A stretch of DNA of 64,000 bases, taken from NCBI GenBank assembly GCA_965227405.1, contig OZ245758.1, positions 1,321,693-1,385,692 on the forward strand, read 5' to 3'. This document shows positions 11,344 through 51,700 of the stretch, one piece after another (the stretch's first letter is position 1; each line of letters starts with the position of its first letter). Source of the stretch: Polyangiales bacterium. GTDB lineage: Bacteria; Myxococcota_A; Polyangia; Polyangiales; Houyiibacteriaceae. The notes under the pieces were generated by a model. That model searched no databases. It saw nothing but the letters and a program-made list of their open reading frames with translations, and was not told the DNA's origin. The translations under genes were made by a program, and so were the position numbers.

Positions 11344-14300
11344 ATGAAGAAGTCCGGTTCCACAGTCCAAGGCGACGGCCCCTATCGCGAGGCGCCGGTT
11401 CAACAACCACCGGACAAAACACCGGGTTGGATCATCGGTGTCATTGGCGGAATGATCGTCTTGGGCGTCTCTCTCGCCATTCTTCGTGACGACCCCGAGC
11501 AGATGCCTGAGCTCGAGGATGTTCCCGGTGTGTTGCTGGACTCCCTCGCGGTGTACCCCGCGCCCACCGAAGATCTGCCGCCCGCGGTACCACTTGATCC
11601 ACTGCTCGCTGCGGACCAACCCGAAATGCTCTCGGTGATGGAACCCGGTCCGGGCGCGATGCGTCTCCAACGCAACGAACCCATCCATGTTCGGTTCAAC
11701 CGTCCGATGGTGGAGGGGGCACAAGTCGGTCAGGACCTCGACAGCTCACCGATTCGATTCACCCCACCGATCAAGGGCACCGCGACCTGGAGCTCTCGAA
11801 GCCGACTGATCTTTCACGCCGACGGATCCGCATGGAACCGATCCCTTGAAGCACGCATGAGCTTCGACCCGGATCTGCGCAGCTTGGATGGCTCAACGGT
11901 CTTTGACGAACACGAACGCGTCGTTGTGTTCGATGGCACGCCGCACCTCGCGCAAACCTCCACCCGCACGGTCAGTCCCGGCGAAGCGCTTCCACTCTTT
12001 TTCGACAACCCGGTGAGCGCTGCACAACTCGGCCGCGACGTCATGCTCTACGAAGTGGGTGGCGGCTCACGTTCGATTCCGTTCGCACTGACCGGCGGGC
12101 GCATGGAAGAGCAGTACTACCGCGTCGATCTCCGCCCGACACGGCGTCTCGAAGAAGGCGCGAGTCTCGCAGCTGCCATCGCTCCGCGTTGGACGCGCTG
12201 GGGTGGAGGCTCACCTTCGATCGTGCGCTACCGAGTGCAGCCACCGCCACAGATCACGGGCGTTGGATGTGGCGATAACGCAGCTGCATACGGCGGGTGC
12301 AGCTATGGCGCCGTGCCGGGACGCATCGTGGATATCGGACCGGCGCTTCGGGTGCTCGCGAGTGAGGCCCTTCGCGAAGTTCTGCCCAACCAAGTTTCAA
12401 TCCGACCTGCTCTGCGTGACATGAGGATCGACTTCGCAGACGACACTCACCGCGTGCTGCAGATCCGCGGCGAGTGGGCTCCAGACCAAGTGTACGAAGT
12501 GCGCATCAACGCGTTGCGAACGGCGAACAACCGCTCACTGCAACGATTCTCGCCGCTTGCTGTTCGAAGCGCAGGTCATCCGCCACGCGTCGAAGTGCAG
12601 ACCGGTCGCTTCGCGTGGGAAATGGACGCCGAGACCCGACTGCGCTTTCGCGGGATTCACGTGGGCAAGGGTTCGATCATCACGCGTCCGGTCGACCCGG
12701 GCGATGAGATCAAAGCCGCACTCGACCCGGCCGGCTATGCCGCACAAGACGTCGATCACGCTCACTACGTGTTGATCGGCCCGCTTGCGCCCGACGCACG
12801 CCCCAACCAATGGGGCGAGGGCGAGTTCCACTGGCACGACGGCGAAACCCGAAACGCCAACATGGCCGTTGTTCAGTTTCGGGCTGGCGAAGCTCACACG
12901 GGCGTCACGTATCCAACGCTCTTTGCGCAGCGCACCAACCTCGCGACAACCGTGCGTGCACTTCCCGATGGGGTGTTGATCTGGGTCACCACGCTGAACA
13001 GTGGCGACGCGGTTGGGGACGCCGAGATCATGCTTGCCGATTCGGAAGGCGCCACGATCAGCACCGCCGAAACAGGAGGTGACGGTGTTGCGTGGATCGC
13101 GTTATCGGATCGCGATCTGACCGAAGAGCGCTTTGTTGTTCGTGCGGTTTCGGGGGACGACCGCCAAATCGTTGTGGTCGAACCTGGTAGTGCGTTGGGT
13201 CCGGCTCGTGTTGGACTCGCGATGGGCGGGGAACCGCCTCCTGAAGGTGCACCTCGGGCAAGTGTGTTTGCCGATCGCGGAGCCTATCGCCCAGGTGAAC
13301 TCGTGCGCGTCAAAGCCATGGTGCGCAGCCTTCATCGGTTGGGCGCCAGCGCGTACCGCGATCAGGAAGTGACGCTACGGGTACGCAGTCCTTCCAGCGT
13401 GGTGCCCTTGATCGAGCGCACGCTTCGCACAAACCAGTTTGGGACGCTGAGCGGCTCGGTCTCGTTGCCGGCGAGCGCCGCACTGGGCACCTACTCGGTG
13501 GTCGTGGCGATTCCGCCCGAAAGCGAAGAAGCGCGCGAGACCGTGGTCGGCAGCACGTCGTTCCGCGTCGCACAGTTTCGGCAGCCCACGTTCCGTGTGG
13601 ACATCGATGTTGCGGAGACCCTGCTCGCGAACGAGGCCATCGCGGCTGAAGCCAACGGCACGTACCTCTTTGGCGCACCCGTCGGCGAAGGTGACGTCAG
13701 CTGGTCGCTCGTTCGCGAAACCGCAGCCGGGTATCCCTCGCGTTGGCGCGAGATGCAGTTCGGTCCCGTTGATGGGTACGTGCAGCACGGTACGATCGCG
13801 TCCGGCAGCGACAAACTGAGTGCTGAAGGTGCACTGCAGCTGGCGTTGAGCGATGGACTCAGCGCCAACCGTCGCGAGCGTTTGGTGTTGGAGGTCGAAG
13901 TTCGCGATCGAACTGGCCAAACCACCGCGGCACATCGCAACCTCACCTTGCTCCCGAGCGCAGTGGAAGTCGGCATCAAGCGTGGTGACGACTGGGTTGG
14001 ACTGGGCGAAGCGCTCAACTTGGACGCGATTGTCATCGACGCGGAAGGGGAGCCTGTCGCCGAGCAACGCGTGGAAACGCGCTTTGTTCGCGAGGGCTGG
14101 CACCGTTGGTACGAGTGGGCACGCGGTGGTCACGGAAGCGGCTACCAAATGCGTCGCGAGCAGGAGCGCGAGCTTGTCCACACGTGTGCGTTGACCTCGT
14201 CGGACGACCTAACGACATGCACGTTCACACCGGATCGTCCCGGCACCTACGTCATGGAAGCCGAGGTTGTCGATACGCAGGGGCGTCGCTCACTCGCGCA

Positions 14301-17217
14301 ACGCCGACTCTACGTCGCCGGTCCGGACGAGGCACCGGACCGCGATCCGCCTGGGGCGCCGATTGCGGTTACGCCCACCCGCCGTTCCTATTCGGTGGGC
14401 GAAGAAGCCGAGCTCGCGTTTGAGTCACCATGGGATGACGCGTTGGCGTTGATCTCGATCGAACAAAACGGGGTGGTCTCGTACGAAACACGCGAAGTCG
14501 ACGCGGGTGGTCAAGTCATCCGTGTTCCGCTGACCGAAGAGATGGTTCCCAACGCGTTCATTGCGGTGTCGTTGGTGCGTGCCCGAACTGCGCCTCCGGG
14601 CGAACAGGTCGACGTTCACGGTCCCGACCTCCGGTTTGGCGCCGCCGAGATTCGGGTCGTTCCGGGACTCTCGCAGCTGGAAGTGTCCACGCGTGCTCCG
14701 GAGCGGGTTGAACCGGGCCAAGAGATCGAGGTCAACGTGCACGTCGACGGTGCGTCTGGGCCCACCGAGGTTGCGCTGTGGATGGTCGACGAGGGATTGC
14801 TTCGTCTTACGGACTACACCACGCCCGATCCCATGTCGGGTTTGTGGCCGCGTGTCGCACCACACTTCGCCTGGGAAGACCTGCGCCGTGCACTGGTGGC
14901 TCGCGTCACTCCGCCTGCAGAACGTGCCGGTGGCGATGGCGGCGAAGTTGCACAACGGACGTTACGACCCGATGAGCCCGTGCTCGATCCGGTGCCGCTC
15001 TGGGAGCCGCATCTGGTCACCGATTCGTCGGGCAACGCGAGCGTGCGCGTTCGACTGCCGGAGCGAACGACCGAGTACCGCATTATCGCGCTCGCGATCG
15101 ACGAGGGTTCCGCGTGGGGTCATCACGAGTCACAGGTCGTCGCAACGCGCCCCGTCGTGCTTGCGGATGCGCTGCCGCGTTTCCTTACGGAGAACGATCG
15201 CTTCGAAGCCGCGTTCTTCGTGCATGGGACAAGCGATGATGACGTCACCCTGCCCGTCCGCATCACCGTGGACGGCGAGGAAGTTCACCGCGAGGAGGTC
15301 ACGCTTCGCGGCCGTGGTCAGAAGCGCATCGCCATTCCCTTGGTGGTGGAGCAACTCGGAAGCATGGACGTGGAGCTGCACGCCGGAAACGCTACGCTCG
15401 CGAGAACGATCCCAGTCGCGCCGCGTGCGCGTTGGATGCGCAGCGTTGCCATTGGCGGTGCGGAAGGCGAGCCCGGATCGCAAAGCAACCGTGAACTGAT
15501 GGTGAATCTGCCTCCCTCAGACGGCGGAAGCATGAATGTGACCGTGTCGAACCACCCCTTCGTGGGCCTCGACCTGGTCGCCGAGATGCTCGAGTCGTCA
15601 CCGTGGGGCGGGCTAACGCACAACGCGTCGACGGTGATTGGACTCGCCGCTCTCACCCGTGTCCACGAAGGCATGCCTCGCGACCGCGCCGAGGAACTTC
15701 AGATCCGCGGCGACCGCGCTGTACGTCAGCTCGTGCTTTTGCAAACCGGCGACGGTGGCTTTGGCCGGTGGACAGGCAACGGCTACGCGTCGGCATGGGA
15801 ACAAGCGTTCGCCATGCACGCGCTCCACGTCGGAAAACAAGCAGGATTCAACGTGCCCGAGGACGTGTACGAACGCTCACGCGCGAACCTCCGACGCTGG
15901 GTGGAGGAACGCTCACTCGCCGACAGCTACTACCGCCGTGAGCCAGACACTCGCGCGTTCGTGTTGCGCGTCTTGGCCGACGCTGACGATCCGATGCCCG
16001 AAGAGATGGGAACGCTCTTCGACAATCGCGACCAGCTGGGTATCGAAGGACTCGCAAACCTCGCGCTGGCCATGGACGAAGACGCAACTCGACGGGCAAC
16101 GCTGGTAAAGCAGGCGATCGACTACGCGCTTGTCGACCACACGGAAGACGACACGTTGGCCGTATACGTGCGGCACTGGGACCGGCGCGCCAGTGTGCTT
16201 GGCCCCCTTCTCGAGGTGGTCTCGACCACACGCGCAGGCATCGCGAGTTCCGGACCCGTTGCGAGCGAGCTCCTGAAGTTGGCCCAAGCAGGTTCACGCT
16301 TCGTATGGCGCACCTCGTTTGATGCGGCGCACGCACTCCAGGGCATAGCTGCATACGCGCAAGCGTTCACGCGCGACGCCGACGAGCTTCCGCAAGTCCA
16401 CCTCGACGGCGCCTTGCAGACAGCTGCAAGTGAAGCGGAGAACGCGGCACGCTACGCGTTCAACCCGCGCTCCCTAGGCGGCGAGTCGCATCAGCTTCGG
16501 TTCACGCCGGACGGCGAACGACCGTTCTTCTACGCGATGGAAGGCGAATGGTCGGTTCCACTCAGCGGCTTCGACCGGGTCGCACGCGGTCGACGCGTGT
16601 CACTCCATCGTCGCTTTGAAACGTCGACCGGTCGTCAGCTTCGCCCCGGTGATGCCGTGGAACTCGGCGAGATGATTCGGGTGCGCTTGTTCGTGTTCAC
16701 CGAGAACTCCAATCCCGGTGACGTGATGATTCACGACCCCATGGGCGGCGGGTTCGAAGCGGTGCAAAACCAGTTCGCCACAACTCCACAAAACGCATTG
16801 ATGGCGATGCTCGGCATGGGACCCGATGACGACGCGGTGGATCCGCGCGGGTACCACGCCATGCGCTCGAGCCATTCGATCAGCCATCGTGCGTTGGAGC
16901 GGAACGCAGCCGTGTACTACTTCGACAATCTGCCCACGGGATTGCAGGAGTACACGTACGTCGTCCGCGCCACGACCGTCGGTGAGTTCACGTTGCCTCC
17001 GGCACAGGTTCAGGCGGCGAGCGACCAGGAGTTCGAAGGTCGTTCGTCGATGTTTGAGCTACGCGTGGTCGAAGAGTTGACCGACGCGGACTTGATTCGC
17101 GAGGAGCCGGATTCGGAAGTCTTGGTCGACGAAGTCTCGGACGACGCAGCCTCGGACGACGAAGTTTCGGATAACGAAGTCTCGGACGGCCCCGACGGAA
17201 TCATGCCCGTCGAATGA
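11344..17217 (+). CDS. Bacterial alpha-2-macroglobulin family protein (thioester motif absent)
   Basis: About 1950 aa. Alpha-alpha toroid segment LVLLQTGDGGFGRWTGNGYASAWEQAFAMHALHV. Where E. coli YfhM has PYGCLEQTTS, this protein reads SPWGGLTHNAST. N-terminal TM anchor. Overlaps the pbpC start by ATGA. Confidence 0.85.
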   Translation: MKKSGSTVQGDGPYREAPVQQPPDKTPGWIIGVIGGMIVLGVSLAILRDDPEQMPELEDVPGVLLDSLAVYPAPTEDLPPAVPLDPLLAADQPEMLSVMEPGPGAMRLQRNEPIHVRFNRPMVEGAQVGQDLDSSPIRFTPPIKGTATWSSRSRLIFHADGSAWNRSLEARMSFDPDLRSLDGSTVFDEHERVVVFDGTPHLAQTSTRTVSPGEALPLFFDNPVSAAQLGRDVMLYEVGGGSRSIPFALTGGRMEEQYYRVDLRPTRRLEEGASLAAAIAPRWTRWGGGSPSIVRYRVQPPPQITGVGCGDNAAAYGGCSYGAVPGRIVDIGPALRVLASEALREVLPNQVSIRPALRDMRIDFADDTHRVLQIRGEWAPDQVYEVRINALRTANNRSLQRFSPLAVRSAGHPPRVEVQTGRFAWEMDAETRLRFRGIHVGKGSIITRPVDPGDEIKAALDPAGYAAQDVDHAHYVLIGPLAPDARPNQWGEGEFHWHDGETRNANMAVVQFRAGEAHTGVTYPTLFAQRTNLATTVRALPDGVLIWVTTLNSGDAVGDAEIMLADSEGATISTAETGGDGVAWIALSDRDLTEERFVVRAVSGDDRQIVVVEPGSALGPARVGLAMGGEPPPEGAPRASVFADRGAYRPGELVRVKAMVRSLHRLGASAYRDQEVTLRVRSPSSVVPLIERTLRTNQFGTLSGSVSLPASAALGTYSVVVAIPPESEEARETVVGSTSFRVAQFRQPTFRVDIDVAETLLANEAIAAEANGTYLFGAPVGEGDVSWSLVRETAAGYPSRWREMQFGPVDGYVQHGTIASGSDKLSAEGALQLALSDGLSANRRERLVLEVEVRDRTGQTTAAHRNLTLLPSAVEVGIKRGDDWVGLGEALNLDAIVIDAEGEPVAEQRVETRFVREGWHRWYEWARGGHGSGYQMRREQERELVHTCALTSSDDLTTCTFTPDRPGTYVMEAEVVDTQGRRSLAQRRLYVAGPDEAPDRDPPGAPIAVTPTRRSYSVGEEAELAFESPWDDALALISIEQNGVVSYETREVDAGGQVIRVPLTEEMVPNAFIAVSLVRARTAPPGEQVDVHGPDLRFGAAEIRVVPGLSQLEVSTRAPERVEPGQEIEVNVHVDGASGPTEVALWMVDEGLLRLTDYTTPDPMSGLWPRVAPHFAWEDLRRALVARVTPPAERAGGDGGEVAQRTLRPDEPVLDPVPLWEPHLVTDSSGNASVRVRLPERTTEYRIIALAIDEGSAWGHHESQVVATRPVVLADALPRFLTENDRFEAAFFVHGTSDDDVTLPVRITVDGEEVHREEVTLRGRGQKRIAIPLVVEQLGSMDVELHAGNATLARTIPVAPRARWMRSVAIGGAEGEPGSQSNRELMVNLPPSDGGSMNVTVSNHPFVGLDLVAEMLESSPWGGLTHNASTVIGLAALTRVHEGMPRDRAEELQIRGDRAVRQLVLLQTGDGGFGRWTGNGYASAWEQAFAMHALHVGKQAGFNVPEDVYERSRANLRRWVEERSLADSYYRREPDTRAFVLRVLADADDPMPEEMGTLFDNRDQLGIEGLANLALAMDEDATRRATLVKQAIDYALVDHTEDDTLAVYVRHWDRRASVLGPLLEVVSTTRAGIASSGPVASELLKLAQAGSRFVWRTSFDAAHALQGIAAYAQAFTRDADELPQVHLDGALQTAASEAENAARYAFNPRSLGGESHQLRFTPDGERPFFYAMEGEWSVPLSGFDRVARGRRVSLHRRFETSTGRQLRPGDAVELGEMIRVRLFVFTENSNPGDVMIHDPMGGGFEAVQNQFATTPQNALMAMLGMGPDDDAVDPRGYHAMRSSHSISHRALERNAAVYYFDNLPTGLQEYTYVVRATTVGEFTLPPAQVQAASDQEFEGRSSMFELRVVEELTDADLIREEPDSEVLVDEVSDDAASDDEVSDNEVSDGPDGIMPVE

Positions 17218-19469
17218 AACAGCTGGTCCGACGCCTGGCTCACAAAGCCAAACGATGCGCACAAGCCGCCGCGGTGTTCGGCATCGCGGTGGTGCTCGCG
17301 TGGTCTAGCGTCGGGCCGCATCTCGTCTCGCGCGACGACTTCACCATCCCTGCTGGCTCGGTCACGATCACCGACCGGCACGGCGAGCCCCTACGTCACG
17401 TGCGCCACAACGACATCCATCGTCGTTGGGTGTCGATCGATGGAGTCTCGCAGAACTTCTTGCTCGCGATGATCGTGGCTGAAGACAAGCGCTTCTTCGA
17501 ACACAACGGCGTGGACTTGCGCGCACTGACTCGTGCCATCGGCTACGCCGTGAGTCCGACACGAAGGCGAAGTGGTGCGTCGACCATCACCCAGCAAACG
17601 GTAAAGCTCACCTTTGGGCGGCCGTTGGGACGATGGTCCAAACCGCTCGAAGTGCTTCGCGCACTCTCGCTCGAACAACACATGAGCAAGAGCGAAATCC
17701 TGGAGCAGTACGTCAACCGACTGCCGTACGCGGACAACGTGGTTGGCATTGCGCGGGCGTCTGAGAGCTACTTTGGCAAACCGCCCTCGCAGCTCACCCT
17801 GGCCGAAGCTGCACTCTTGGCGGGATTGCCGCAGGCGCCTACCCGCTACGACCCACGACGTCATCCCGAAGCAGCGCGCGATCGACGAAGTGTCGTGCTT
17901 CGCCGCATGCAGCGTTTGGGCGTGATCACCGCAGAAGAGCTGCGTGATGCGCTCAACACGCCGATTCGTGTCCAGCACGAGTCGCGTCCTTGGCGCGCTG
18001 CGCGTTTTGCGGATCGCGTGCTGGGTGCGTACCGGCACGGTGAAGTTCGTGCCGACTCGCGTCGCCGAGTTCGGTCCACGTTGGACCTGCGCGTTCAAGC
18101 CGAGACCGAGAGCATTCTTCGCGCCGCCGTGGAACGACAGCGAACTCGTGGCGTAACAAACGGTGCCGCGATCGTGGTGGACAACAAGACCGGCGAGATT
18201 CGTGCGTACGTGGGTGCCGCACGTCCGGAGGGCCCAGGCGGATCGATGGATTTGCTCCAGGCCGGTCGCCAGCCAGGGTCAACGCTTAAGCCGTTTGTGT
18301 ACGAACTCTTCTTCGAGCGTGGAGGTACAGCAGCAAGTGTCTTGGCAGACGTTGCTGCGCCGATGCGCGGTGGACAGGGCGAAACGTTCGAAGCACATGA
18401 CTACGATGGTCGTGAACGCGGTCCCGTCCGTGCACGTGCAGCACTTTCGGCGTCATTGAACCTCGCGGCGATTGATGCGGCACGCCAAGTCGGCGCCGAG
18501 CGCATCGTGTCTCGTCTGCGCGACCTCGGCATGCGCAACGTCGGTTCCGCGCAGGAGTACGGTGCCGCAATCGCGCTCGGAGGTTTGGACGTGCGCCCGA
18601 TCGATTTGGCGCGCGCATATGTGACACTCGCTCGTGAAGGCTCGCGAATCGGGCTGCGTTTCACTCCTGCGGCGACGGCAGTCCAGGGACGGGAAGTGCT
18701 GGACCCCAACGCTGCGCGTCTAACGACGGACATTCTGCGCGACCCGGTGGCGCGTCGAGACGGCTTTGGCCGCGACCTGACCGATCTTGCCGACGGCGAC
18801 TTTGCTCTCAAAACCGGAACGAGCAGCGGATTCCGGGACGCGTGGGCGGCCGTGTACACCGATGAATTGACCGTGGTGGTTTGGTTGGGTGACCCCGAGG
18901 GTCGACCTCTCGACGAAGTGTCTGGCTTTGGCGCCGCTGCGCCCATCGCTGCGCGTATCTTGGGAGCCGCACGAACCGAACCCGAATTTGCTCGCGGTGC
19001 ATTCGTCACGCAGATGGTCTGTCCACTCAGCGGTGCACGTCCGGGGCCTTCATGCCCGCACGCGATCGCCGAACGCTTCGTCGAGGGCACCGGACCAGCA
19101 CACGTTTGTCCCTTCCATCAACCCGATGGGTCCGTTGTCCTTCCTCCTAGCTACGCCGGCTGGCAGGCACGCGTACAAACAGCCGGAACGCGTATCGCGC
19201 AACTTGGACAGCGCGGCCACCTTCGCGTCGTCCGACCACGCGATGGCGCACGCTTGTTGATCGACAGCACGCGTCCGCCAAGCGTCGACCTTCAGGCCAC
19301 GCTCGGCGGAAGCTTCGCGACCGACGTCGTCTGGTCGGTCAACGGTCACATCACACACGGTGCATGGCGGCCCGAGCCTGGCACACACCGCATCGAAGCA
19401 CGCTTCGGAAACCAAGTTGCGCACGCCGAGGTCAGCGTGCAGCGAATCAGTCCTCCACAAACGCCTTGA
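17214..19469 (+). CDS. pbpC: Penicillin-binding protein 1C (transglycosylase/transpeptidase)
   Basis: Glycosyltransferase motifs EDKRFFEHNG and STITQQ. Transpeptidase motifs STLKPF (SxxK) and KTGTS. Coupled to the A2M gene. Confidence 0.9.
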   Translation: MKQLVRRLAHKAKRCAQAAAVFGIAVVLAWSSVGPHLVSRDDFTIPAGSVTITDRHGEPLRHVRHNDIHRRWVSIDGVSQNFLLAMIVAEDKRFFEHNGVDLRALTRAIGYAVSPTRRRSGASTITQQTVKLTFGRPLGRWSKPLEVLRALSLEQHMSKSEILEQYVNRLPYADNVVGIARASESYFGKPPSQLTLAEAALLAGLPQAPTRYDPRRHPEAARDRRSVVLRRMQRLGVITAEELRDALNTPIRVQHESRPWRAARFADRVLGAYRHGEVRADSRRRVRSTLDLRVQAETESILRAAVERQRTRGVTNGAAIVVDNKTGEIRAYVGAARPEGPGGSMDLLQAGRQPGSTLKPFVYELFFERGGTAASVLADVAAPMRGGQGETFEAHDYDGRERGPVRARAALSASLNLAAIDAARQVGAERIVSRLRDLGMRNVGSAQEYGAAIALGGLDVRPIDLARAYVTLAREGSRIGLRFTPAATAVQGREVLDPNAARLTTDILRDPVARRDGFGRDLTDLADGDFALKTGTSSGFRDAWAAVYTDELTVVVWLGDPEGRPLDEVSGFGAAAPIAARILGAARTEPEFARGAFVTQMVCPLSGARPGPSCPHAIAERFVEGTGPAHVCPFHQPDGSVVLPPSYAGWQARVQTAGTRIAQLGQRGHLRVVRPRDGARLLIDSTRPPSVDLQATLGGSFATDVVWSVNGHITHGAWRPEPGTHRIEARFGNQVAHAEVSVQRISPPQTP

Positions 19470-20317: not shown

Positions 20318-22609
20318 ATGGGGAAGGAGGAGACGCTCACAGACACGATCGCTGAGCTGGACCAGACGTTCGTACGCGATTCGAAGGCCGAGGGGGATTG
20401 GAGCGTCCAGCCTTCGGAGCGGTACGAGCTAGGCGCGATCGTCGGATCGGGGGCCCAAGGCGACGTGCTGCGTGCCACAGACCGCGTGCTCGGTCGGGAG
20501 GTTGCGCTCAAGGCGTTGCGTCAAGACGGGATCGACCTCGACATTGGCAACTTCATTCGCGAGGCGCGGCTGATGGCGCAGATCGGCCACCCCAACATCA
20601 TGCCGATCTACGACGCCGGGCTTCTCCCCGACGGGCGGCTCTTCTACACCATGCCGCTACTCGAGCAGCGCACCCTCGCAGAGTTGATCGTCCAGATCGC
20701 GATGGGCGAAGACATGCCACTCGTGCGAAGGATGCGTCTGTTCGCAAACGCGTGCACCGCTGTCCACGAGGCACATCTCAAAGGTGTCTATCACCGTGAT
20801 CTAAAACCGCACAACATGGTGATCGGCCCGAGCGGTGAACTCCTCGTGACGGACTTTGGACTCGCGCGACGAGAAGACGAGGAGATCGAAAAGCGCGATC
20901 CAAACGAAACCGGTCCGATCGGAACACCTCTGTACATGTCGCCAGAACAAGCCCGCGGAGAACCTGGTGATGTGTCCTCGGACGTGTACTCACTCGGAGC
21001 GATTCTGTTTGAGCTGCTGACGCTGGAGCGTCCCATCGAAAAGGACAACGTGGTCAAGCAGCTGGTCGCTGTGTTGCACGATGACCCGCCACGTGCGCAT
21101 GAAGTTCATCCCGAAGTTCCGCTCGATTTATCTGAGTTGGCCGCGCGTTGCTTGGCCAAACTTCCTGGCGATCGTCCTGAGAGTGCACTTGCCGTCGTCG
21201 AAGGAATCGAGGGATGGCTTGAAGGTCGCTTTGAAGATGAGCGGCGGAGGCAGGAGTGCCGCAAGCGCGTGGAACATGCGCAAGAGCGACTGGGAGTTGC
21301 AAAGCGACTGAGCACTGCGATCGGCGCGCTGCAAGGTCAGCTGCACGCGATGCGACTCGACACACCGGAACACGCACCGCTGAAGGTCAAACAACCGTTG
21401 TGGGAGATGGAAGGCAACATCGAGCGGCTTGTGTTGGAACGCGACGAAGCGGAGGAAGCCGCGGTCGCATCCTTGGAACTAGCCTTGCGAGCACGCCCGA
21501 AAGATCCAGCTGCATCCAGTACGTGGGTCGAGGTTCAGCTTCGGCGTCGCGAGCGGTTACTCGAAGCTGGACACGAAGTGCTTGCCCGGCGTGCGGCGGC
21601 GCGTGCGATCCGTGTCGGTGGTGATGTCCTGGAGCATCAACTTTACGGTGCCGGACGACTCTGGGTGCAGACCGATCATCCCGTTTGGTTGGAACGCTAC
21701 GCAGTACGTGGAGGCACACTCCAACCTAGCGAGCCCGTCGAAGTGCGGACCCAAATCGATCTCCCGCCGGGTTCGTATCGCTTGCGCGCCAACGTTGCGG
21801 GCGTCGATGTGTTTCTTCCCGTGTTGATCGAAGCCGGCGAAACGTTGCCCGTGGGCTTTCACCCCGGACTTCAGAGCGCGTTGCCGCAGGGGTTTGCGCT
21901 TGTGCACGCCGGTCGAACTCAGCTTGGTGGGGATCGCGATGCGATTCACTCCGAACCCGCGCGTGTCGTGGAGATGCACAGTTTTGGGATGGCGCGGCGA
22001 CCCGTGACTGCTGCCGAGTACCTCGCTTGGCTGCGGACGTTCGACGATCCCGAGACCGCGTTGTTGAAAGGACCGCGTGCGACACCAGATGGTGGTCCGT
22101 ACTGGAAAGTCGTGGACGGGTGCATCGTGATTCCCGTGGAAGACGACGATGGGGATGCGTGGGATCCGAACTTTCCGGTGTTTGGGATCACGCGTCGTGA
22201 CGCTGAGGCGTATGTCGAGTGGCGGTCGAAACGGGATGCTCGGCACTACCGGTTGCCGACGGACGATGAGTGGGAACGAGCCGCGCGAGGAGCGGATGGT
22301 CGACGCTATCCGTGGGGTGATCGTTTCGATCCTGCGTTGTGCAAGATGCGGCTTTCGCGTCCCGGTCAGTTTCGTCCTGAACCCATCGGTGCGTTTGCGA
22401 CCGATGTGTCGCCTTTCGGCATTGTGGACATGGCGGGTTCGATCGCCGAGTGGACCAGTTCAGCGTACCGTGATGATCCTGTGCATGTGAGTGTGCGGGG
22501 AGGTGCGTGGAGTAGTCGTGCGCATCGATGTGCGGCTTCGTTTCGGGGTTCGATGATTGTCGATCATCTCAGCGCGGACCTAGGGTTTCGTCTGGTCGTT
22601 GACCTGTGA
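20318..22609 (+). CDS. Ser/Thr protein kinase fused to a C-terminal FGE-sulfatase (SUMF1-like) domain
   Basis: Kinase: GSGAQGDVLRA, VALK, HRDLKPHNMVI, DFGLAR, SPEQ. C-terminus: GMARRPVTAAEYLAWLRTF...RGGAWSSRAHRCAASFRG, the formylglycine-generating-enzyme fold. Confidence 0.85.
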   Translation: MGKEETLTDTIAELDQTFVRDSKAEGDWSVQPSERYELGAIVGSGAQGDVLRATDRVLGREVALKALRQDGIDLDIGNFIREARLMAQIGHPNIMPIYDAGLLPDGRLFYTMPLLEQRTLAELIVQIAMGEDMPLVRRMRLFANACTAVHEAHLKGVYHRDLKPHNMVIGPSGELLVTDFGLARREDEEIEKRDPNETGPIGTPLYMSPEQARGEPGDVSSDVYSLGAILFELLTLERPIEKDNVVKQLVAVLHDDPPRAHEVHPEVPLDLSELAARCLAKLPGDRPESALAVVEGIEGWLEGRFEDERRRQECRKRVEHAQERLGVAKRLSTAIGALQGQLHAMRLDTPEHAPLKVKQPLWEMEGNIERLVLERDEAEEAAVASLELALRARPKDPAASSTWVEVQLRRRERLLEAGHEVLARRAAARAIRVGGDVLEHQLYGAGRLWVQTDHPVWLERYAVRGGTLQPSEPVEVRTQIDLPPGSYRLRANVAGVDVFLPVLIEAGETLPVGFHPGLQSALPQGFALVHAGRTQLGGDRDAIHSEPARVVEMHSFGMARRPVTAAEYLAWLRTFDDPETALLKGPRATPDGGPYWKVVDGCIVIPVEDDDGDAWDPNFPVFGITRRDAEAYVEWRSKRDARHYRLPTDDEWERAARGADGRRYPWGDRFDPALCKMRLSRPGQFRPEPIGAFATDVSPFGIVDMAGSIAEWTSSAYRDDPVHVSVRGGAWSSRAHRCAASFRGSMIVDHLSADLGFRLVVDL

Positions 22610-44353: not shown

Positions 44354-47300
44354 ATGAGGAGTCTGGTTGCGCTTTGTGCGCTGGTCGTCGCGTTTTCCGT
44401 GGCGTGTGGAGGCGGATCCGGTGAACCGCTTCCCGCGGGAACCGTTGCTCTGGTCGAAACGATTCGCGGCGAAGGAAACGCACAGCGCATTGCGTCAGGC
44501 TCGACGATTGAAATCGCCGGCTTGTCTCGCGTGATGCTCGACACAGGTCCGCGCCTTTTGGTTCGGGACGGCTCGTTCCAGATCACCGAAGACGGAACGA
44601 TCGAGTTGAACGGCACCGCATTCGTCGAAGTTCATCCGGGCGACGTGTTGAACCTCAAGGTGGGAGACCTCGAGCTGAGCGCCCGCGACGCTGGCTTCTC
44701 CATCGAAGACGGTTCGGTGTACGTCGTCGCAGGCGAAGTTCGCTTTGATGGCGCGCAAAGCGGCACCGTCCACGCCGGCGAACGCTTGCGTGATGGACGC
44801 GCCGTTCCGGAACCACTGTGGGACGACTGGACTGGGGGATTGGCGCGTCCCGGTCCTGGACTCGATTCCCGCAACGCCATCGGTTCTCTCTACGCGCGTG
44901 TTCCCGACGCAACCGGACAGGCTCGCTGGCCCCTCGTGATGCGCCGCTTGGATGTCCGCACACGCGTCGTCGACGACCTCGCGATTACCGAAGTCGAGCA
45001 GGTCTTCTTCAATCCGGCGAGCGAGCGCGTCGAGGGCATGTACCGAATCCACGTCCCCAACTCGGCGGTGCTGCAACGCTTCGCGGTCGATCGTGACGGA
45101 ACACTGGTCGATGGCTTTGTTCGCGAGAAGCGCCAAGCCGAAGCCGCGTACGAAGCCCAGGTTTACCAAGGCTCTACACTGGATCCTGCATTGCTGGAAT
45201 GGGTGTCCGCGGGTCAATACCAAGCACGCATCTATCCCATCGAACCCGGCGCCACGCGTCGCATCGTCGTTCGCTACGCCGAATGGCTCGAGCGCAACGC
45301 CGCAGGCAATCGCATGTACCGCTTTCCCATGGCCGGCGGTGCGAACGCTCCGATGTTGCAAGAACTCGCGTTCGAAGCGGACTTGAGCGGCGCGGGAATC
45401 AAGGAAGTCTCAAGCGGTTTCGAAGCGGAAGCCGATGGACAGATCGTGCGCATGCGCCGAAGCGACTTCCGACCGCGTAGCGACCTCTATCTGGAGTTGG
45501 TCGACGCGGAATCAAGCGATGCACAAACCGCATGGCGCGCCGAACATGTCGCGCCGGTTCGCGATCCACGCGCAGGTGCGATGCCCGACGAAGACGAACT
45601 CGACTATCTCTACGTGCCGCTCGTGCTGCCCGACGAACTCTTCGGTGAAGCAAACGGCGGTCTCGACGTCGTGATCGTCGCGGACGTGTCGGCGGCAACC
45701 GAACGCTCGCACCTGGAACTTGGGCGCACCGTGGTGGAGTCGATCACGGCGCACCTTGGCGACAATGATCGCGTGGCGATCGTCGCCAGTGACGTCGCAC
45801 TCCGACACTTGGAAAGTGATGGCGGGCTTGGTCCTGCATCCACAGAACGAGTGGAGTCGCTTTTGGACGCCCTCGCTCGCGTGCCCTCCGGTGGTGCGAG
45901 CGACCTGGGTGCAGCTCTCGCCGACGCGTCGGCGCTGTTGGATCCCGCCCGCAACGGCGTGGTGATCTACGTGGGTGATGCCGCGCCGACCGTGGGTGAA
46001 CTCGGGGCCGAAGCACTCTTGCAACGCGTCGCGCGACTTCCTCAACCCCTGCGGGCGTACGGTGTCGCGGTCGGCTCGGATGCGCACTTGGACTTGCTCG
46101 ATGCGGTGACGCGCGGCGGTGGGTTAGCACTGCGTGTTGAAACGCGATCGGCGGCTGCCGAAGCAGCGCTGGAGATTCTTGCGCACGCACAACGTCCCGC
46201 CGCCCACCGGGTGAGTGTGGTGCTCGAAGGCGCCGAGCAGGTGTTTCCACGCGGAACCGCAGACGTTGTTCAAGGTGCGGTGCTGCCGGTGGTGGGTCGC
46301 ATCGAAGACGACCTTCCCGTCAAGGTGAAGGTCACCGGATTGATCGGCGGACAGGAGTTCGAGCAAGAGATTTCGCTGGAGCACCAAACGATCGAAGACG
46401 AAGGTGATCTGCGTTTGCGCTGGGCCGCGCAACGACTTCATCAGTTGCTGCTGAGTGGCGGCACACGCGAAGAGATCGCCGACCTTGGTGTGCGCTACGG
46501 AATCATCACTCCGTTCACGAGCTTCTACGTTCCCTCCGCAGCGGAACTGAGCGCGATGGGCAGTGCTGCGCATGAGCTGCAGCGTCGGCCGCCTGGGTTC
46601 GAAGAAGATTCGATCGGGCGTTTGGCGCTCTTGCCGACGCAAGCGTTGTTGGCGATGCCGGGATGTTCGGAAGGGGAACCACTCGCAAGCGCATCGGGAG
46701 AAGCAGCAAGCCAGCCCAATAGCGAAGTGGAGCTCGCGCCCGAAGAGCCTTTGGATCAGGCCGACATTCCGGCTGAAGACGACGACCCGGCGCGCGTGCT
46801 GGCGGAGCTGGTCGAGCAAGCCCAACAGCTACAACGGCAACAAGGCGAGTCGGACAACCGTGCGTCGAGCCGGACCCAACCCTCCAACGATCCCGCGCCG
46901 GTTCAAGCGGTACCCACCGAGACTCCAGAGCCGGCTGCCGCTCAACCGAGTTACGAACCCGAGCCCGAAACCACGACGGCTGATGGTGCATTCGGTTCGG
47001 GTGGACTTGGACTTCGTGGCGAACGCCGACGCCGACCGCGCGGAGGCGGCGGCGAAGGTCTCGGCGATGTTGACGATGTTCTCGCAGGAGCAACGTCGAT
47101 GCGCGAAGCCGCTCCGGGCCGTTACGCGATCACTCGCACCGAAGAGGAGAGTGAAGCGAACGAAGAGCTCCGAATCCCCTACTCCACATCCTCCTTCGAC
47201 GCCGACGAGCAGGAACGCGAAGCCGCTGTCGCTGCGACCGGCGCCGAAAACGCACCCGCAGTCGCGCGTAACAGCGGCGTTCTCGGAGCGCTCGACAGCT

Positions 47301-48766
47301 CTGAATCACTCGCAAACCAAACCCTTCGAGAGTTGCTCGACGCCAACGGAGAGTCGGCAAGCGGACGCGACGAAGGTGGCGCACGACGTGCCAACGATCG
47401 TTGGACCACCACACAAGAGGTCACCGTCCGCGTCACCACGGAACACCGGCGCACGCGACACCAACGACGACGCTGCAGCGATGCCGCCGACCTCCTCCTC
47501 GACGGTCGCCGCGAAGTCTGGCGCGAACGACTCGACCAAGGTGGCATCTCGCATTGGATCACCGTCTACCGCCAAGCCGCGCGCGCATGTGAGCTGCGCA
47601 CCTGGCGCGATCGGCGCGCACTTCTGGATCTGATCCTAGCCAAGGCCGGAAGCATCGAGCGCATGGTGGCGGTCTATCGCTTGTTGGGGAGTAGCGGCGC
47701 CCGCAACTACGTTCGTCGTGTGGTGCTGCGTCGCGTTCGGACGCCCGAGGATCTACGCATTGCACGACAAGCGTTCGCAGGGCGCACCACCGACGCGACT
47801 CTGATTGCGCAAGTGCTTGAACGCGCTGGCGAAGGTCCCGCGAAGATCCGGGCGCTTCGAAGCTTGATCATGCAGTTCAAAACGGACCTCAACCTGCGGC
47901 TTCGACTCCTCGAAGAGCTCGAGAAGGCAGAGCGAATCGCTGAACTCCGTCGCGCCGCCCACGAGCTTCGTCGTGACCCGATGACCGACGCAGGAATCCG
48001 AACGGCCATCGGTGAGATGTACCTGCGACTCGAAGACGAAGCGGAAGCGCGACGCGTGTTTTCCGAGATCGTGGAGTTTGCGCCGCACGATGCACTGGCA
48101 CGTCGGCGATTGGGCGACATCTACTGCGCACACGAGTGGTACGAGGACGCGTATCGGCAGTACGAAACGCTGCAGAGCATCACACCCGACGATCCATCGG
48201 TCGCGTTGCTTCTCGCACGTGCGGCGGCGGGTGCAGGTCGTGTGGATGAGGCTTTGAGGCTCGAACAAGGTCTGGCGGAAAGCACTGGTGGCGATGCCGG
48301 ACTCGGACGCGTCGCACTGCTTTGGTCGTCGGTTCGTTTCGCAGAGCTTCGTGCTGCAGCCGGAAACGATGCCGAGCAGCGCGAAGCATTGGCGAGTCGC
48401 ATGCGGCGCAGTGGCGTTCTGCGCCTCGCGAAGTCGCTTCGCGCGACCTTGGTGTGGTCGCACCCGGATGCAGCGCTTTCGCTATGGGCCGGACACCCAG
48501 GGTTGAGCGTCACCCGACCGGTCGACCTCGCTCCCGAGTACGGCCTCGAAGCGTTCGAGGTCGCCACACAAGAAGCGGGTGCCTATCCGATCGAAGTGCG
48601 TCACCTGGACGCAGGTCATCTCACCACGGTGCACGCCAAGCTCGTGGTGGTGTGGAACGAAGGCCAGGAGGACGAACAAATCGAAGTGCGTGAGTTGACC
48701 TTTGGTCCCAACAATCACCGCAGTGCCTTCCGCATCGAAGGGCGCAGCCTGGAGGTGGCGCAATGA
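44354..48766 (+). CDS. Giant lipoprotein: FecR-like - VIT - von Willebrand A - acidic disordered insert - TPR/helical C-terminal module (paralog 1)
   Basis: Lipobox LVVAFSVACGGG with SD AGGAG. FecR-like region FQITEDGTIELNGTAFVEV. VIT domain WPLVMRRLDVRTRVVDDLAITEVEQVFFNP...YRIHVP...QARIYPIEPG. VWA domain DVVIVADVSAATERS (the MIDAS-position residues). C-terminal TPR-like helices. Confidence 0.8.
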   Translation: MRSLVALCALVVAFSVACGGGSGEPLPAGTVALVETIRGEGNAQRIASGSTIEIAGLSRVMLDTGPRLLVRDGSFQITEDGTIELNGTAFVEVHPGDVLNLKVGDLELSARDAGFSIEDGSVYVVAGEVRFDGAQSGTVHAGERLRDGRAVPEPLWDDWTGGLARPGPGLDSRNAIGSLYARVPDATGQARWPLVMRRLDVRTRVVDDLAITEVEQVFFNPASERVEGMYRIHVPNSAVLQRFAVDRDGTLVDGFVREKRQAEAAYEAQVYQGSTLDPALLEWVSAGQYQARIYPIEPGATRRIVVRYAEWLERNAAGNRMYRFPMAGGANAPMLQELAFEADLSGAGIKEVSSGFEAEADGQIVRMRRSDFRPRSDLYLELVDAESSDAQTAWRAEHVAPVRDPRAGAMPDEDELDYLYVPLVLPDELFGEANGGLDVVIVADVSAATERSHLELGRTVVESITAHLGDNDRVAIVASDVALRHLESDGGLGPASTERVESLLDALARVPSGGASDLGAALADASALLDPARNGVVIYVGDAAPTVGELGAEALLQRVARLPQPLRAYGVAVGSDAHLDLLDAVTRGGGLALRVETRSAAAEAALEILAHAQRPAAHRVSVVLEGAEQVFPRGTADVVQGAVLPVVGRIEDDLPVKVKVTGLIGGQEFEQEISLEHQTIEDEGDLRLRWAAQRLHQLLLSGGTREEIADLGVRYGIITPFTSFYVPSAAELSAMGSAAHELQRRPPGFEEDSIGRLALLPTQALLAMPGCSEGEPLASASGEAASQPNSEVELAPEEPLDQADIPAEDDDPARVLAELVEQAQQLQRQQGESDNRASSRTQPSNDPAPVQAVPTETPEPAAAQPSYEPEPETTTADGAFGSGGLGLRGERRRRPRGGGGEGLGDVDDVLAGATSMREAAPGRYAITRTEEESEANEELRIPYSTSSFDADEQEREAAVAATGAENAPAVARNSGVLGALDSSESLANQTLRELLDANGESASGRDEGGARRANDRWTTTQEVTVRVTTEHRRTRHQRRRCSDAADLLLDGRREVWRERLDQGGISHWITVYRQAARACELRTWRDRRALLDLILAKAGSIERMVAVYRLLGSSGARNYVRRVVLRRVRTPEDLRIARQAFAGRTTDATLIAQVLERAGEGPAKIRALRSLIMQFKTDLNLRLRLLEELEKAERIAELRRAAHELRRDPMTDAGIRTAIGEMYLRLEDEAEARRVFSEIVEFAPHDALARRRLGDIYCAHEWYEDAYRQYETLQSITPDDPSVALLLARAAAGAGRVDEALRLEQGLAESTGGDAGLGRVALLWSSVRFAELRAAAGNDAEQREALASRMRRSGVLRLAKSLRATLVWSHPDAALSLWAGHPGLSVTRPVDLAPEYGLEAFEVATQEAGAYPIEVRHLDAGHLTTVHAKLVVVWNEGQEDEQIEVRELTFGPNNHRSAFRIEGRSLEVAQ

Positions 48767-51700
48767 ACCGCCTGTGTGTTGCGCTCTTGCTCATCGGCTG
48801 CGGGGGTTCGGCGCCAGAACCTGCCGCAACGGTCGCGACCGCAGAGCCGATTCGCGGTGGCTTCCAACTCGAACGCCAGTCGTTCACCACCAACGTCGAT
48901 GTGCCGACACGCGTCGAGATCGAAAGCACAGCATCCACGGCTGAGGACGGTCGCGGCGCGTTGCGACTCGATGGCGGTGCATGGGTTCTGCTGGATCGCA
49001 ACACCAGTGCGATTCCTGCACTCGAAGCGCTGGAGCTGAAGTCGGGTCGGGCTTGGATCGACGCACGCGACACCGAGATGGTCGTGCGCACTCCGAACGG
49101 AGAGATCCGCGCGGTCGATGCCACGTTCGATGTGCAGGTCGGCGAAACCGTTGAGGCGTACTGCGCGTCGGGTGAGTTGAGTTGGATCGCGAACGACCAG
49201 GACGGACGCGTCGCACAAGGCGAATCGCTGGTGCTCAGCGCGGAACCGAGCGTGCGCCCCGAACGTTTGTGGAACGACTGGACTGGCGGGCTGGCAGACC
49301 CTCGTGCACGTCGCGATGCAGTGGCTGGGTACGTGGGTGTGTTGGCCGGTCGTGGGCTCGATCAGTTCGGCCGGGCACGACGACCGCTCGCGATTCGAGC
49401 ACACGAAGTCGATGCCGCGATCCACGACGACTTCGCGAGCACAACGGTGATCCAAACGTTCTTCAACGCGGAAAGCACCGCGCTGGAAGCTGAGTACCGC
49501 TTGCGCATTCCACGCGATGCGGTCGTCAACGGATTTGCGGTCGACCTCGGTGGCGGGTTCGTCGAAGCCACGGTGCAACCCATGTCGTCACGCGGCTACG
49601 GCTTGGACTGGGACGACCCGAGTGTCGCGACCAGTCGCTTGTCCTACGACGGGCCCGATCGATTGCGCGCGCGTGTCCACCCGGTCCAGCCCGGCGCAAC
49701 AGTGCGGGTCAAAGTCAGCTACGCACAGTGGCTGGATCGTCGCGGCGATCGGCGCACGTACCACTACCCGATGCACTCCGAAGATGCGCGCCCTCCTCGC
49801 GTGGGCGAACTCCGCGTGCGAGTCGACACAGGACGAACTGAAGTCGGTGCACATCGAGCAGGTATGGGCGCCACGGTCGACGGGAACGCCGTGGTGGTTC
49901 GACGAAGCGACTGGCAACCCAGCGCGGACTTCTACCTCGATCTGATCGATGGCGAAGACGAGGAACGTCCGGAAGGGGCATCGGCATACGTCGTCGATGC
50001 ACCTGCCGAACCCGGCGCGGATGGCACTCAGCAGTTCGTCCTGATCGATGTTCCGACCGAGGCCATCACTGCCGAATCCGAGGCGGATGGCTTGGACGTG
50101 GTGGTGGTTGTCGATGTGTCCGGCGCCACAAACGCCGAGGACTTGGAACTCGCGCGTGCGATCGTCGAGTCGGTCGCGACCCAACTTGCACCCGACGATC
50201 GGATTGCGATTCGCGTCGGCGATGTGTCGGCGCACACCCCCGAAGGCGCGTCCGATGAACTTGCGCCAGCGAACGACGCCACACGCGAAGCAATTCTTGA
50301 ATCCTTGGCGCGTGCACAACTCGGCGGAGCCACGGACCTCGGCGCGATGTTGCGCGACGCCGCAGATGTCGTGGCGAATCGTCCCAAGGGCGTGGTGATC
50401 TACGTCGGCGACGCCACACCGACGACGGGTGCGATGGAAACCACCAGCCTTCGTCAGCAGTTGGCCTCGATTCCGGATGCACCACGCTTCTTTGGACTCG
50501 CTGTCGGCGAAGGATCCAACGTCGAGCTGCTTCGTTCGCTCTTCACCGAGCCACGAACCGTGTCGGTTCAAGAACGCACCGATGCATCGCGTGCGGTGAT
50601 GCGCTTGTTGGCTCGCGCGGCAGAACCCGGACTGCGCAACGTGCAGCTCGATTTAGGCTCGGGTATCGAGCGGGTGTTCCCGCGTCCCCCCATCGCACTT
50701 ACAGCAGGCAAGCCGCTGCGCGTCGTGGGGAGACTGCGCGAAGACTTGCCCAGCGAAGTCACCATCCGTGGCGCGCTCGACGGCGCTGCGTTCGAAACCA
50801 AGATGCCGCTCACACGACGCACGCTCGACGACCAAGGCGACATCCGTCGTCGTTGGGCTGTCGCGCGACTGCAAGAGTTGATCGACGCCGACGAAGGACG
50901 TGAAGCCCTCGTCGAGCTCGGCGTCCGATTCGGAGTCCTGACACCGTGGACTTCGTACGTTGCACTCGGCGGCAAAGTCGACGGCTACTGGCCCGTACGC
51001 GGATTTGATCGCGATCCGGTCGCGCTAGATTGGGCGGCCGGAGGGGGTGCACCTCGCGAAACGAGCTCGCGAGGTTGGCGTCGACGACGCGCACAAGCCG
51101 CACCCGAACCTGTGCCAACGCTGGAACGAACCTGGGTCTCTCGGGTGAGCACGTCCGAAGAAGAGGTCACCGCCGGCAATGACGGAGGGCTGGGTCGTGC
51201 CGCGGTGGCCCGTGCACTGCAACGTTCCGAACGCGGTCCACAGGCCTGCTACGAACGCCGACTTCTTGTGCGCCCCGATCTGCGCGGCATGGTGCAAATC
51301 GAGGTTGAAGTCGACGGAGATGGCAGCGTCAAAGACGCCAAGATCGTCCGCGGTCTGGGCGAGTCTGGCGTGGACGCGTGCATCCTGACCGAGATTCGCG
51401 GTGTTCGTTTCCCGGCCACGGGTTCCAACGGCGTGCGCGTCACGCACTCGTTCCACTTCGAGTCGTCAGGACGCGGCCTGGGAACACAGCGACAGTGCAG
51501 CGATGCGTCGCGCCAGGACCTCAGCGTGCGGCTCAACCTGTGGCGCGAGCGACTCAACGCCAATGCCGGACCCGGCGGGGCACTCGCGGTGTGGCGTGAA
51601 GCCTCACGTCAGTGTGAGCTGTCCAGTTGGCGAGCTCGACGCCAACTGCTGCGTCTTCTGCTTCGTGCAGTGCCGAGCGTTGACGGTCGATTGACCATCT

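Follow-up and report, generated by a model that had tools for sequence, protein, structure and literature searches.

Within a 64,000-nucleotide stretch of contig OZ245758.1 from a Polyangiales bacterium (hereafter the window), the gene of an alpha-2-macroglobulin (A2M) that has no thioester motif overlaps the gene of a class A penicillin-binding protein (PBP) resembling PBP1C. This combination of a thioester-less A2M with a pbpC-type neighbour is a conserved feature of a large clade of Polyangia and not a defect of one genome. Bacterial A2Ms have so far been divided into two classes. Those of Class or Type I are encoded next to pbpC, are lipoproteins with a lipobox, and carry a bait and the thioester sequence CLEQ; those of Class or Type II belong to a six-gene mag operon, have a signal peptide and contain neither Cys nor CXEQ (PMC3735191, PMC5764988). 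The initial annotation of the locus had stated that thioester-less A2Ms normally occur in a Mag-type context, which agrees with this published dichotomy, and had called the combination found here atypical. Compared with the published classes it is atypical, but it is not the oddity of a single genome.

The macroglobulin gene and its PBP1C-like neighbour

The A2M gene (11344-17217, plus strand) is an open reading frame (ORF) of 1957 aa beginning with ATG, whose product aligns to the structures of ECAM (the E. coli YfhM protein) and Salmonella A2M (SaA2M). Its Pfam domains are bMG3, MG2, bMG5, bMG6, A2M_BRD, A2M and bMG10, of which only bMG5 falls short of the gathering score, by a narrow margin (26.2 versus 26.5). 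For the thioester domain (TED) family there was no Pfam match in the protein. The series of macroglobulin (MG) domains, the bait-region domain (BRD) and the C-terminal bMG10 place the protein in the bacterial A2M superfamily (COG2373-type).

The PBP gene (17214-19469, plus strand, 751 aa) encodes an N-terminal transmembrane (TM) anchor, a GT51 domain and a transpeptidase domain. Pfam finds Transgly (1.2e-54) and Transpeptidase (1.2e-18), and BiPBP_C weakly (21.3 bits against a cut-off of 26.8). TIGR02073 (PBP_1c) is the best NCBIfam family, with 486.1 bits and a cut-off of 494.2. The motifs EDKRF (aa 90), GASTITQQ (121), KPLE (143), STLK (356), SLN (414) and KTG (533) are intact. With E. coli PbpC the protein shares 32% identity over ~590 aa, the order of GT51 and transpeptidase domains, the same motifs, and the place downstream of an A2M gene. 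It differs in lying below the TIGR02073 cut-off and in having an only weakly detectable BiPBP_C domain.

At the junction, CGAATGAAAC, the ATG of the PBP gene and the TGA of the A2M gene share 4 nt (ATGA, 17214-17217, plus strand), an overlap of stop and start that indicates translational coupling. The junction, the Pfam domains and TIGR02073 thus all agree with the A2M-PbpC pair that had initially been annotated. Upstream of the A2M gene lies a divergent ORF of 707 aa without any Pfam match, and the neighbours downstream of the pair, an HTH/AHSA1 gene and a kinase gene, are on the minus strand. With such neighbours, the transcription unit most simply consists of the two genes. Scans for promoters and terminators returned nothing that exceeded shuffled expectation. 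The A2M and PBP genes together form an operon with translational coupling.

Loss of the thioester site

The former thioester site of the A2M (15598-15621, plus strand) reads S-P-W-G-G-L-T-H where thioester-bearing proteins have Y-P-Y-G-C-x-E-Q. It was placed by hidden Markov model (HMM) alignment to ECAM and SaA2M and by alignments with more than 100 homologues, and lies in the stretch SPWGGLTHNAST (aa 1419-1430, from nt 15598). In a phmmer search of all PDB sequences the only matches were ECAM and Salmonella A2M. This search paired 'lesspwgglthnast' of the window A2M with 'lkaypygcleqtas' of ECAM, and the same stretch with 'lkagpygcleqtts' of the Salmonella A2M Y1175G mutant. The equivalent of CLEQ is therefore GLTH (G1423-H1426): Cys is replaced by Gly1423 and Gln by His1426, and the lock Tyr by Ser1418, one residue ahead of SPWGGLTH. 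The whole 1957-aa protein contains no C.EQ motif and only four Cys (309, 319, 948 and 959), none of them within the TED. The degenerate thioester site and the absence of CxEQ, both pointed out in the initial annotation, are thus upheld, and the alignment to E. coli YfhM that it had proposed as a check reveals no CxEQ elsewhere in the protein.

The loss extends beyond the thioester itself. In ECAM, the motifs RDDR and ExMY shield the thioester: they form hydrogen bonds with the TED as long as the protein is native and, once it has been activated, bind the cleaved bait (PMC4498604). We compared these motifs by aligning the window A2M with YfhM and YfaS, both from E. coli MG1655, and with CxEQ-bearing relatives. 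Its C-terminal MG domain (bMG10 or CTMG; 16600-17028, plus strand), delimited by the Pfam match and aligned with YfhM and the CxEQ-bearing relatives, has L-E-R-N (aa 1851-1854, nt 16894-16905) for RDDR and Q-A-A-S (aa 1890-1893, nt 17011-17022) for ExMY. Without a thioester this A2M cannot capture a protease covalently, and methylamine-sensitive covalent capture is predicted to be absent.

Conservation of the pair in Polyangia

A homologue search over 5.8 billion proteins yielded ~80 clusters with 35-99% identity and near-full coverage. All clusters for which the source gives an organism name are from Myxococcota (Sandaracinaceae, Polyangiales, Sandaracinus amylolyticus and Minicystis rosea). 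The ORFs are intact at ~1900-2000 aa and share more than 100 invariant columns. None of the ~80 clusters has CxEQ at the homologous position, where many members read xxEx, whereas CxEQ is present in more distant matches.

Clade loci were gathered from the encoding contigs and by an alignment-based scan of metagenomes (a genome scan with the single protein returned 6 loci only). In S. amylolyticus (CP011125), M. rosea (CP016211) and the contig of the window, a gene with Transgly and Transpeptidase domains follows directly. A PBP1C-like gene comes next on the same strand in every clade locus with DNA past the A2M stop; the only loci without it are those on contigs that end inside the A2M gene. 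The catalytic motifs EDxxF, GxSTxTQQ, KxxE, SxxK, SxN and KTG are intact in the PBPs across the clade. An overlap of the A2M stop with a start codon was seen in 13 of the 14 clade loci, compared with about 8 of 17 loci with a callable PBP start in the thioester-bearing outgroup. The flanking genes are not conserved from locus to locus, so that the conserved unit is the A2M-PBP pair. A third conserved gene was considered and rejected: the flanking ORFs of the window, including that of 707 aa, are shared only with a near-identical contig (L009).

The initial annotation had suggested a search for a second, thioester-containing A2M. The 64-kb window contains no second macroglobulin gene. M. rosea does have one (CP016211; locus L008, 990-6413, minus strand): a canonical A2M of 1807 aa with YPYGCTEQ, RDDR and EEMY, located 3.6 kb from the thioester-less one. 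It adjoins a gene for an Amidase_3 protein, a peptidoglycan amidase, and not a PBP gene.

Origin of the thioester-less macroglobulins

Two origins could account for a thioester-less A2M beside pbpC: a Type I protein may have lost its thioester, or a Type II protein like MagD or YfaS may have come to be encoded beside pbpC. The nearest relatives outside the clade have 23-28% identity over 1400-1800 aa and are likewise ~1900-2000 aa long. These outgroups, from metagenomes and metagenome-assembled genomes of Myxococcota (among them L002, L026, L036 and P0081), differ from the clade in that they retain CxEQ (YPYGCLEQ; CVEQ in P0081), RDDR, ExMY and mostly a lipobox of the LVAC or AVAC type; their genes are followed by a PBP1C-like gene. 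In a rough neighbour-joining tree the closest lineage is P0081, with a lipobox, CVEQ, RDDR, EFMY and a PBP1C-like neighbour, and the clade was monophyletic in 100 of 100 bootstraps. As the distances were saturated (NaN warning), the tree was used only for the monophyly of the clade and for the CxEQ status of its neighbours.

The score rankings point in the same direction. An HMM of the clade gives 650-760 bits with the nearest non-clade proteins (nearly all of them with CxEQ, and pbpC-linked where downstream DNA exists), 284 bits with E. coli YfhM and 137 bits with E. coli YfaS, the lowest of the set. In phmmer searches the window A2M scores 84.7 bits with YfhM versus 46.3 bits with YfaS. With YfaS as the query, the median of the clade members is 45 bits, below the median of 77 bits for non-clade CxEQ proteins. 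Since the nearest outgroups are pbpC-linked and carry CxEQ, and in view of the HMM ranking, the clade is a derivative of Type I and not a relocated Type II.

A transfer of a Type II macroglobulin would explain the missing CxEQ and the likeness of EPWGGV in YfaS to SPWGGL in the window A2M. Yet the rankings in both directions place YfaS furthest away, P0081, the sister lineage, combines CVEQ with a lipobox and is encoded beside pbpC, and the four Cys of the window A2M are conserved, whereas Type II proteins are free of Cys (PMC3735191). Furthermore, there are no mag or yfa partner genes in the neighbourhood within the window or at any clade locus, and the yfa-type partners DUF2138, DUF1175, DUF2300 and DUF2135 were not reported beside the A2M in the three clade loci annotated with Pfam. 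We regard such a transfer as very improbable; the rankings both ways largely refute it. The resemblance of SPWGG (15598-15612) to EPWGG at the former thioester site of YfaS, the most distant A2M compared, is probably a convergence after the loss of Cys.

Taken at the level of sequence, these comparisons indicate that the clade ancestor lost the Cys and Gln of CxEQ, the lock Tyr and RDDR, that ExMY degraded further in the sub-lineage of the window A2M, and that a lipid anchor was exchanged for a helix in the clade. It was hence justified to speak, as the initial annotation did, of a lost thioester: the nearest outside relatives are pbpC-linked, mostly lipoproteins, and have YPYGCxEQ and RDDR/ExMY. 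Of the four sequence-level marks of Type I the window A2M lacks three (CxEQ, the shielding motifs and the lipobox) and retains the gene context; with Type II it shares the absence of CxEQ, but neither the operon nor the sequence affinity.

Among the A2Ms compared, the combination of a missing thioester with a pbpC neighbour occurs only in this clade. Two other thioester-less A2Ms, P0083 (FSIEQ, with Ser replacing the thioester Cys) and P0090 (loci L083 and L084), are encoded by stand-alone genes linked neither to pbpC nor to mag genes, which means that the two published classes leave gaps in more than one direction. In three further proteins (P0107, P0109 and P0111) macroglobulin domains are fused to long TPR arrays; P0109, labelled Planctomycetota, and P0111 are without CxEQ.

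The N-terminus

The window A2M begins with a charged tail (aa 1-27; 11344-11424, plus strand) which is disordered in the AlphaFold2 (AF2) model and predicted to be cytoplasmic. It is followed by the hydrophobic segment GWIIGVIGGMIVLGVSLAIL (aa 28-47; 11425-11484, plus strand), a probable signal-anchor TM helix with a mean Kyte-Doolittle value of 2.5 that AF2 models as a helix, and then by the acidic stretch RDDPEQMPELED. There is no lipobox, and the first Cys of the protein occurs only at aa 309. The reading frame extends no further upstream than a TGA 17 codons ahead of the ATG, which leaves no room for a concealed signal peptide with a lipobox ahead of the start. The homologues with complete N-termini start alike, with tail and helix, and a wrongly set start codon, named in the initial annotation as a possible refutation, is ruled out.

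The tail contains the motif G-P-Y-R (aa 12-15, nt 11377-11388), which is nearly invariant in the clade and located 12-20 residues ahead of the helix. Many members have RR or RRR immediately before the helix. Among all DNA sequences collected for the analysis, G-P-Y-R together with the helix is confined to the A2M genes of the clade.

The acidic stretch behind the helix is consistent with an orientation in which the N-terminus is inside and the C-terminus outside. The most economical, and probable, topology is that of a signal anchor, with the N-terminus in the cytoplasm and the bulk of the protein in the periplasm; cleavage by signal peptidase I is the alternative. Thus the initially noted absence of a lipobox and the hydrophobic N-terminal segment (20 residues, modelled as a helix) both stand, whereas the description 'TM-anchored' goes further than direct observation.

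Domain structure, candidate bait loop and thioester domain

Between the helix and the MG core lies an N-terminal stalk of ~4 Ig-like or MG-like beta-sandwich domains (aa ~95-530; 11626-12933, plus strand), modelled by AF2 with a pLDDT of ~90. Foldseek matched it to generic tandem Ig-like domains and to MG0-NIE-MG1 of ECAM (4zjg). The pair Cys309/Cys319 in the stalk is invariant across the clade. The MG core (bMG3, MG2, bMG5 and bMG6) and the BRD, defined by Pfam and the conservation profile, extend from 12934 to 14808 (plus strand) and include Cys948 and Cys959. In the conservation profile, aa ~961-1040 are the most conserved stretch of the clade; there, between bMG6 and the BRD, P-D-R-D-P-P-G (aa 998-1004, nt 14335-14355) is invariant.

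From per-column conservation we propose TPPAERAGGDGGEVAQRTLRPDEP (aa 1189-1213; 14908-14982, plus strand) as a candidate bait loop. At its core, aa ~1200-1212 form a stretch that is hypervariable within the clade and has many Gly, Pro and charged residues; around this core, FAWEDLRR, GDG and DPxPLW are conserved. The loop aligns to the region RFGGDGDELKRGGKP just after the disordered bait of ECAM, which comprises Arg923-Leu942 (PMC4498604).

The TED homologue (aa ~1409-1673; 15568-16362, plus strand) has kept the alpha-helical fold and lost the chemistry. A model of aa 1290-1957, built with AF2 on an alignment of 33 sequences, has a mean pLDDT of 86 and is helical at model residues 120-384. 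The best Foldseek matches are native ECAM (4ziu and 5a42) and SaA2M (4u48), with a TMq of 0.67-0.68 and an E-value of 5e-29, whereas the protease-activated forms of ECAM and SaA2M match poorly (TMq ~0.3); the identity in the structural alignments is 16-17%. According to this model, the native-like arrangement of MG9, TED and CTMG is retained. Structures of complement C5 are also among the Foldseek matches of the TED model. C5 is a thioester-less eukaryotic member of the A2M/C3 family which has kept the TED fold and is not a protease trap. It lost the thioester independently, in an unrelated lineage, and its architecture differs from that of the window A2M.

In the CxEQ outgroup, the surroundings of the thioester site (+/-10 aa, 25 residues) are conserved at 1.55 times the protein mean, compared with 0.90 times in the clade. 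For the whole TED the values are 1.02 times in the outgroup and 0.83 times in the clade. By this sequence measure, the constraint on the TED is relaxed in the clade relative to the thioester-bearing outgroup. These values also bear on the idea that another covalent or reactive chemistry has replaced the thioester, for example through a Glu at the third position of the motif. The xxEx found in many clade members would fit, but GLTH of the window A2M contains no Glu, the TED contains no Cys, and conservation of the site in the clade lies below the protein mean. We give a replacement chemistry very little credence.

The C-terminus of the window A2M is an acidic, disordered tail (17029-17214, plus strand; AF2 pLDDT <50) with EVSDD units. 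According to Tandem Repeats Finder (TRF), a 15-nt tandem repeat GAAGTCTCGGACGAC in 4.9 copies (17116-17188) encodes EVSDD at aa 1930-1952. The repeat is thus present as initially annotated; as a feature of the clade it does not hold, since the EVSDD tail occurs only in the closest relatives and is missing from most others, a few of which have acidic tails of different composition. In a 99%-identical metagenomic copy (P0001) the tail is one codon shorter. A functional role relevant to the clade was ruled out for this disordered repeat expansion.

A low-complexity tail and relaxed conservation of TED and MG9 could be taken as signs of decay, the protein being the relic of a Type I A2M that is turning into a pseudogene after its thioester was knocked out. 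However, the ORFs are intact at ~1900-2000 aa in ~80 clusters down to 35% identity, with their invariant columns; the pbpC coupling has been conserved, AF2 models the protein with confidence, and new conserved features have been gained. The depth of conservation refutes pseudogene decay, and we consider a relic of this kind very improbable.

Comparison with characterised macroglobulins

The closest characterised relatives are the Type I proteins ECAM (YfhM) and SaA2M (PDB 4ziq, 5a42 and 4u48). The window A2M resembles them in the order of MG domains, BRD, TED fold and CTMG, in its predicted location at the inner membrane facing the periplasm, and in that its gene directly precedes a gene of the PBP1C type to which it is coupled. 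Unlike them, it has no CxEQ, lock Tyr, RDDR or ExMY, has a predicted signal-anchor helix with a G-P-Y-R tail in place of the lipobox, and exceeds them by ~300 aa, its N-terminal stalk being of another kind.

With the Type II proteins MagD of P. aeruginosa and YfaS of E. coli it shares the lack of a thioester together with the retention of a bait region and a TED-like domain. MagD traps protease non-covalently after cleavage of its bait (PMC5764988). The differences are that the window A2M has pbpC as a neighbour instead of mag partners, that it has four conserved Cys, and that a predicted membrane anchor of its own takes the place of MagB, which tethers MagD; of the A2Ms compared, YfaS has the lowest sequence affinity to the clade.

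Possible functions

We lean slightly towards the interpretation that the window A2M is a membrane-tethered, non-covalent protease trap which is triggered by cleavage and produced together with a repair synthase. It would be a monomer-type A2M, mostly periplasmic and held at the inner membrane by its N-terminal signal-anchor helix, in which the MG keyring, the TED fold, the C-terminal MG domain and a BRD bearing a short hypervariable loop have been kept. Cleavage of the loop by a protease would cause a conformational change by which the protease is held non-covalently, as in the unrelated MagD, and the co-expressed PBP1C would repair or reinforce the peptidoglycan. The membrane topology, the protease trapping and the functional cooperation with the PBP are what we infer here. 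The term 'defence pair' in the initial annotation likewise names an inherited hypothesis.

Several observations weigh against such a trap. A thioester-inactivated mutant of Salmonella A2M failed to trap its protease (PMC5764988), so that a scaffold derived from Type I may trap poorly without a thioester unless compensating changes have occurred. MagD needs the partners MagA, MagB and MagF, none of which is encoded at the locus. With RDDR and ExMY gone, the activation mechanism of ECAM cannot apply unchanged. FAWEDLRRxLVSRV, the counterpart of the disordered ECAM bait, shows strong conservation among clade members, and only ~13 residues make up the variable loop, unlike a broad-spectrum bait. 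Finally, the N-terminal helix may be removed by signal peptidase I instead of serving as an anchor.

Possibly, the scaffold has been put to another use and is no longer an inhibitor. The protein would then be a membrane-tethered activator or localisation factor of PBP1C or a sensor of the envelope state, linked to a cytoplasmic factor by the G-P-Y-R tail. The thioester apparatus has been lost in full, the bait-receiving RDDR/ExMY included, and the clade has gained a predicted cytoplasmic motif and a probable signal anchor that are kept clade-wide; the coupling of stop and start is stricter in the clade than in the outgroup; and conservation is highest in aa 961-1040 and the FAWEDLRR segment and not in the TED. 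In Minicystis, the separate canonical thioester A2M nearby would leave the thioester-less one free to diverge. A natural fusion of the two partners also exists: P0088, a chain of 2893 aa, combines A2M domains (with YPYECNEQ) with Transgly and Transpeptidase, which supports a physical cooperation between A2M and PBP. On the other hand, there is no direct evidence for a regulation of PBP1C by any A2M, the short hypervariable loop of Gly, Pro and charged residues persists at the position of the bait, and a mere scaffold would hardly be expected to retain the TED and native-like packing over deep divergence. On balance we judge this re-purposing rather unlikely.

In a specific form of it, the A2M would be a transmembrane sensor and regulator of envelope damage which no longer inhibits proteases; cleavage or deformation of the keyring would be relayed to PBP1C and, via G-P-Y-R, to a cytoplasmic partner. 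This we think decidedly unlikely. If true, it would be the first case of a macroglobulin fold that controls peptidoglycan synthesis rather than trapping proteases.

Other genes in the window

Some genes elsewhere in the window encode multidomain proteins. The product of 20318-22609 joins a Ser/Thr kinase domain with an FGE-sulfatase (formylglycine-generating-enzyme-like) domain at its C-terminus. Two genes with overlapping stop and start (44354-48766 and 48763-52824) encode giant proteins, 1470 and 1353 aa in length, that contain VIT, VWA and TPR domains. The 1353-aa protein also has weak matches to TonB_C and FecR, and a gene for a Ser/Thr protein kinase is next to it (52862-54628).

Implications

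In a literature search we found no published description of a thioester-less, pbpC-linked A2M; isolated cases may be contained in the survey of Budd et al. 2004. For specialists the finding would be a modest surprise. Cultured and sequenced hosts exist with Sandaracinus amylolyticus and Minicystis rosea, the latter of which allows a comparison with a canonical A2M within the same organism.

Because the arrangement is conserved across the Polyangia clade, we regard it as a distinct third variety of bacterial macroglobulin and not as a one-off defect: an evolutionarily stable configuration with the gene context of Type I, the chemistry of Type II, and a predicted membrane anchor and predicted cytoplasmic motif of its own. 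As such it is a natural experiment on two questions, namely whether the cooperation of A2M and PBP1C, which has been postulated but never demonstrated, depends on covalent capture, and how a monomeric macroglobulin might trap a protease with neither a thioester nor Mag partners.

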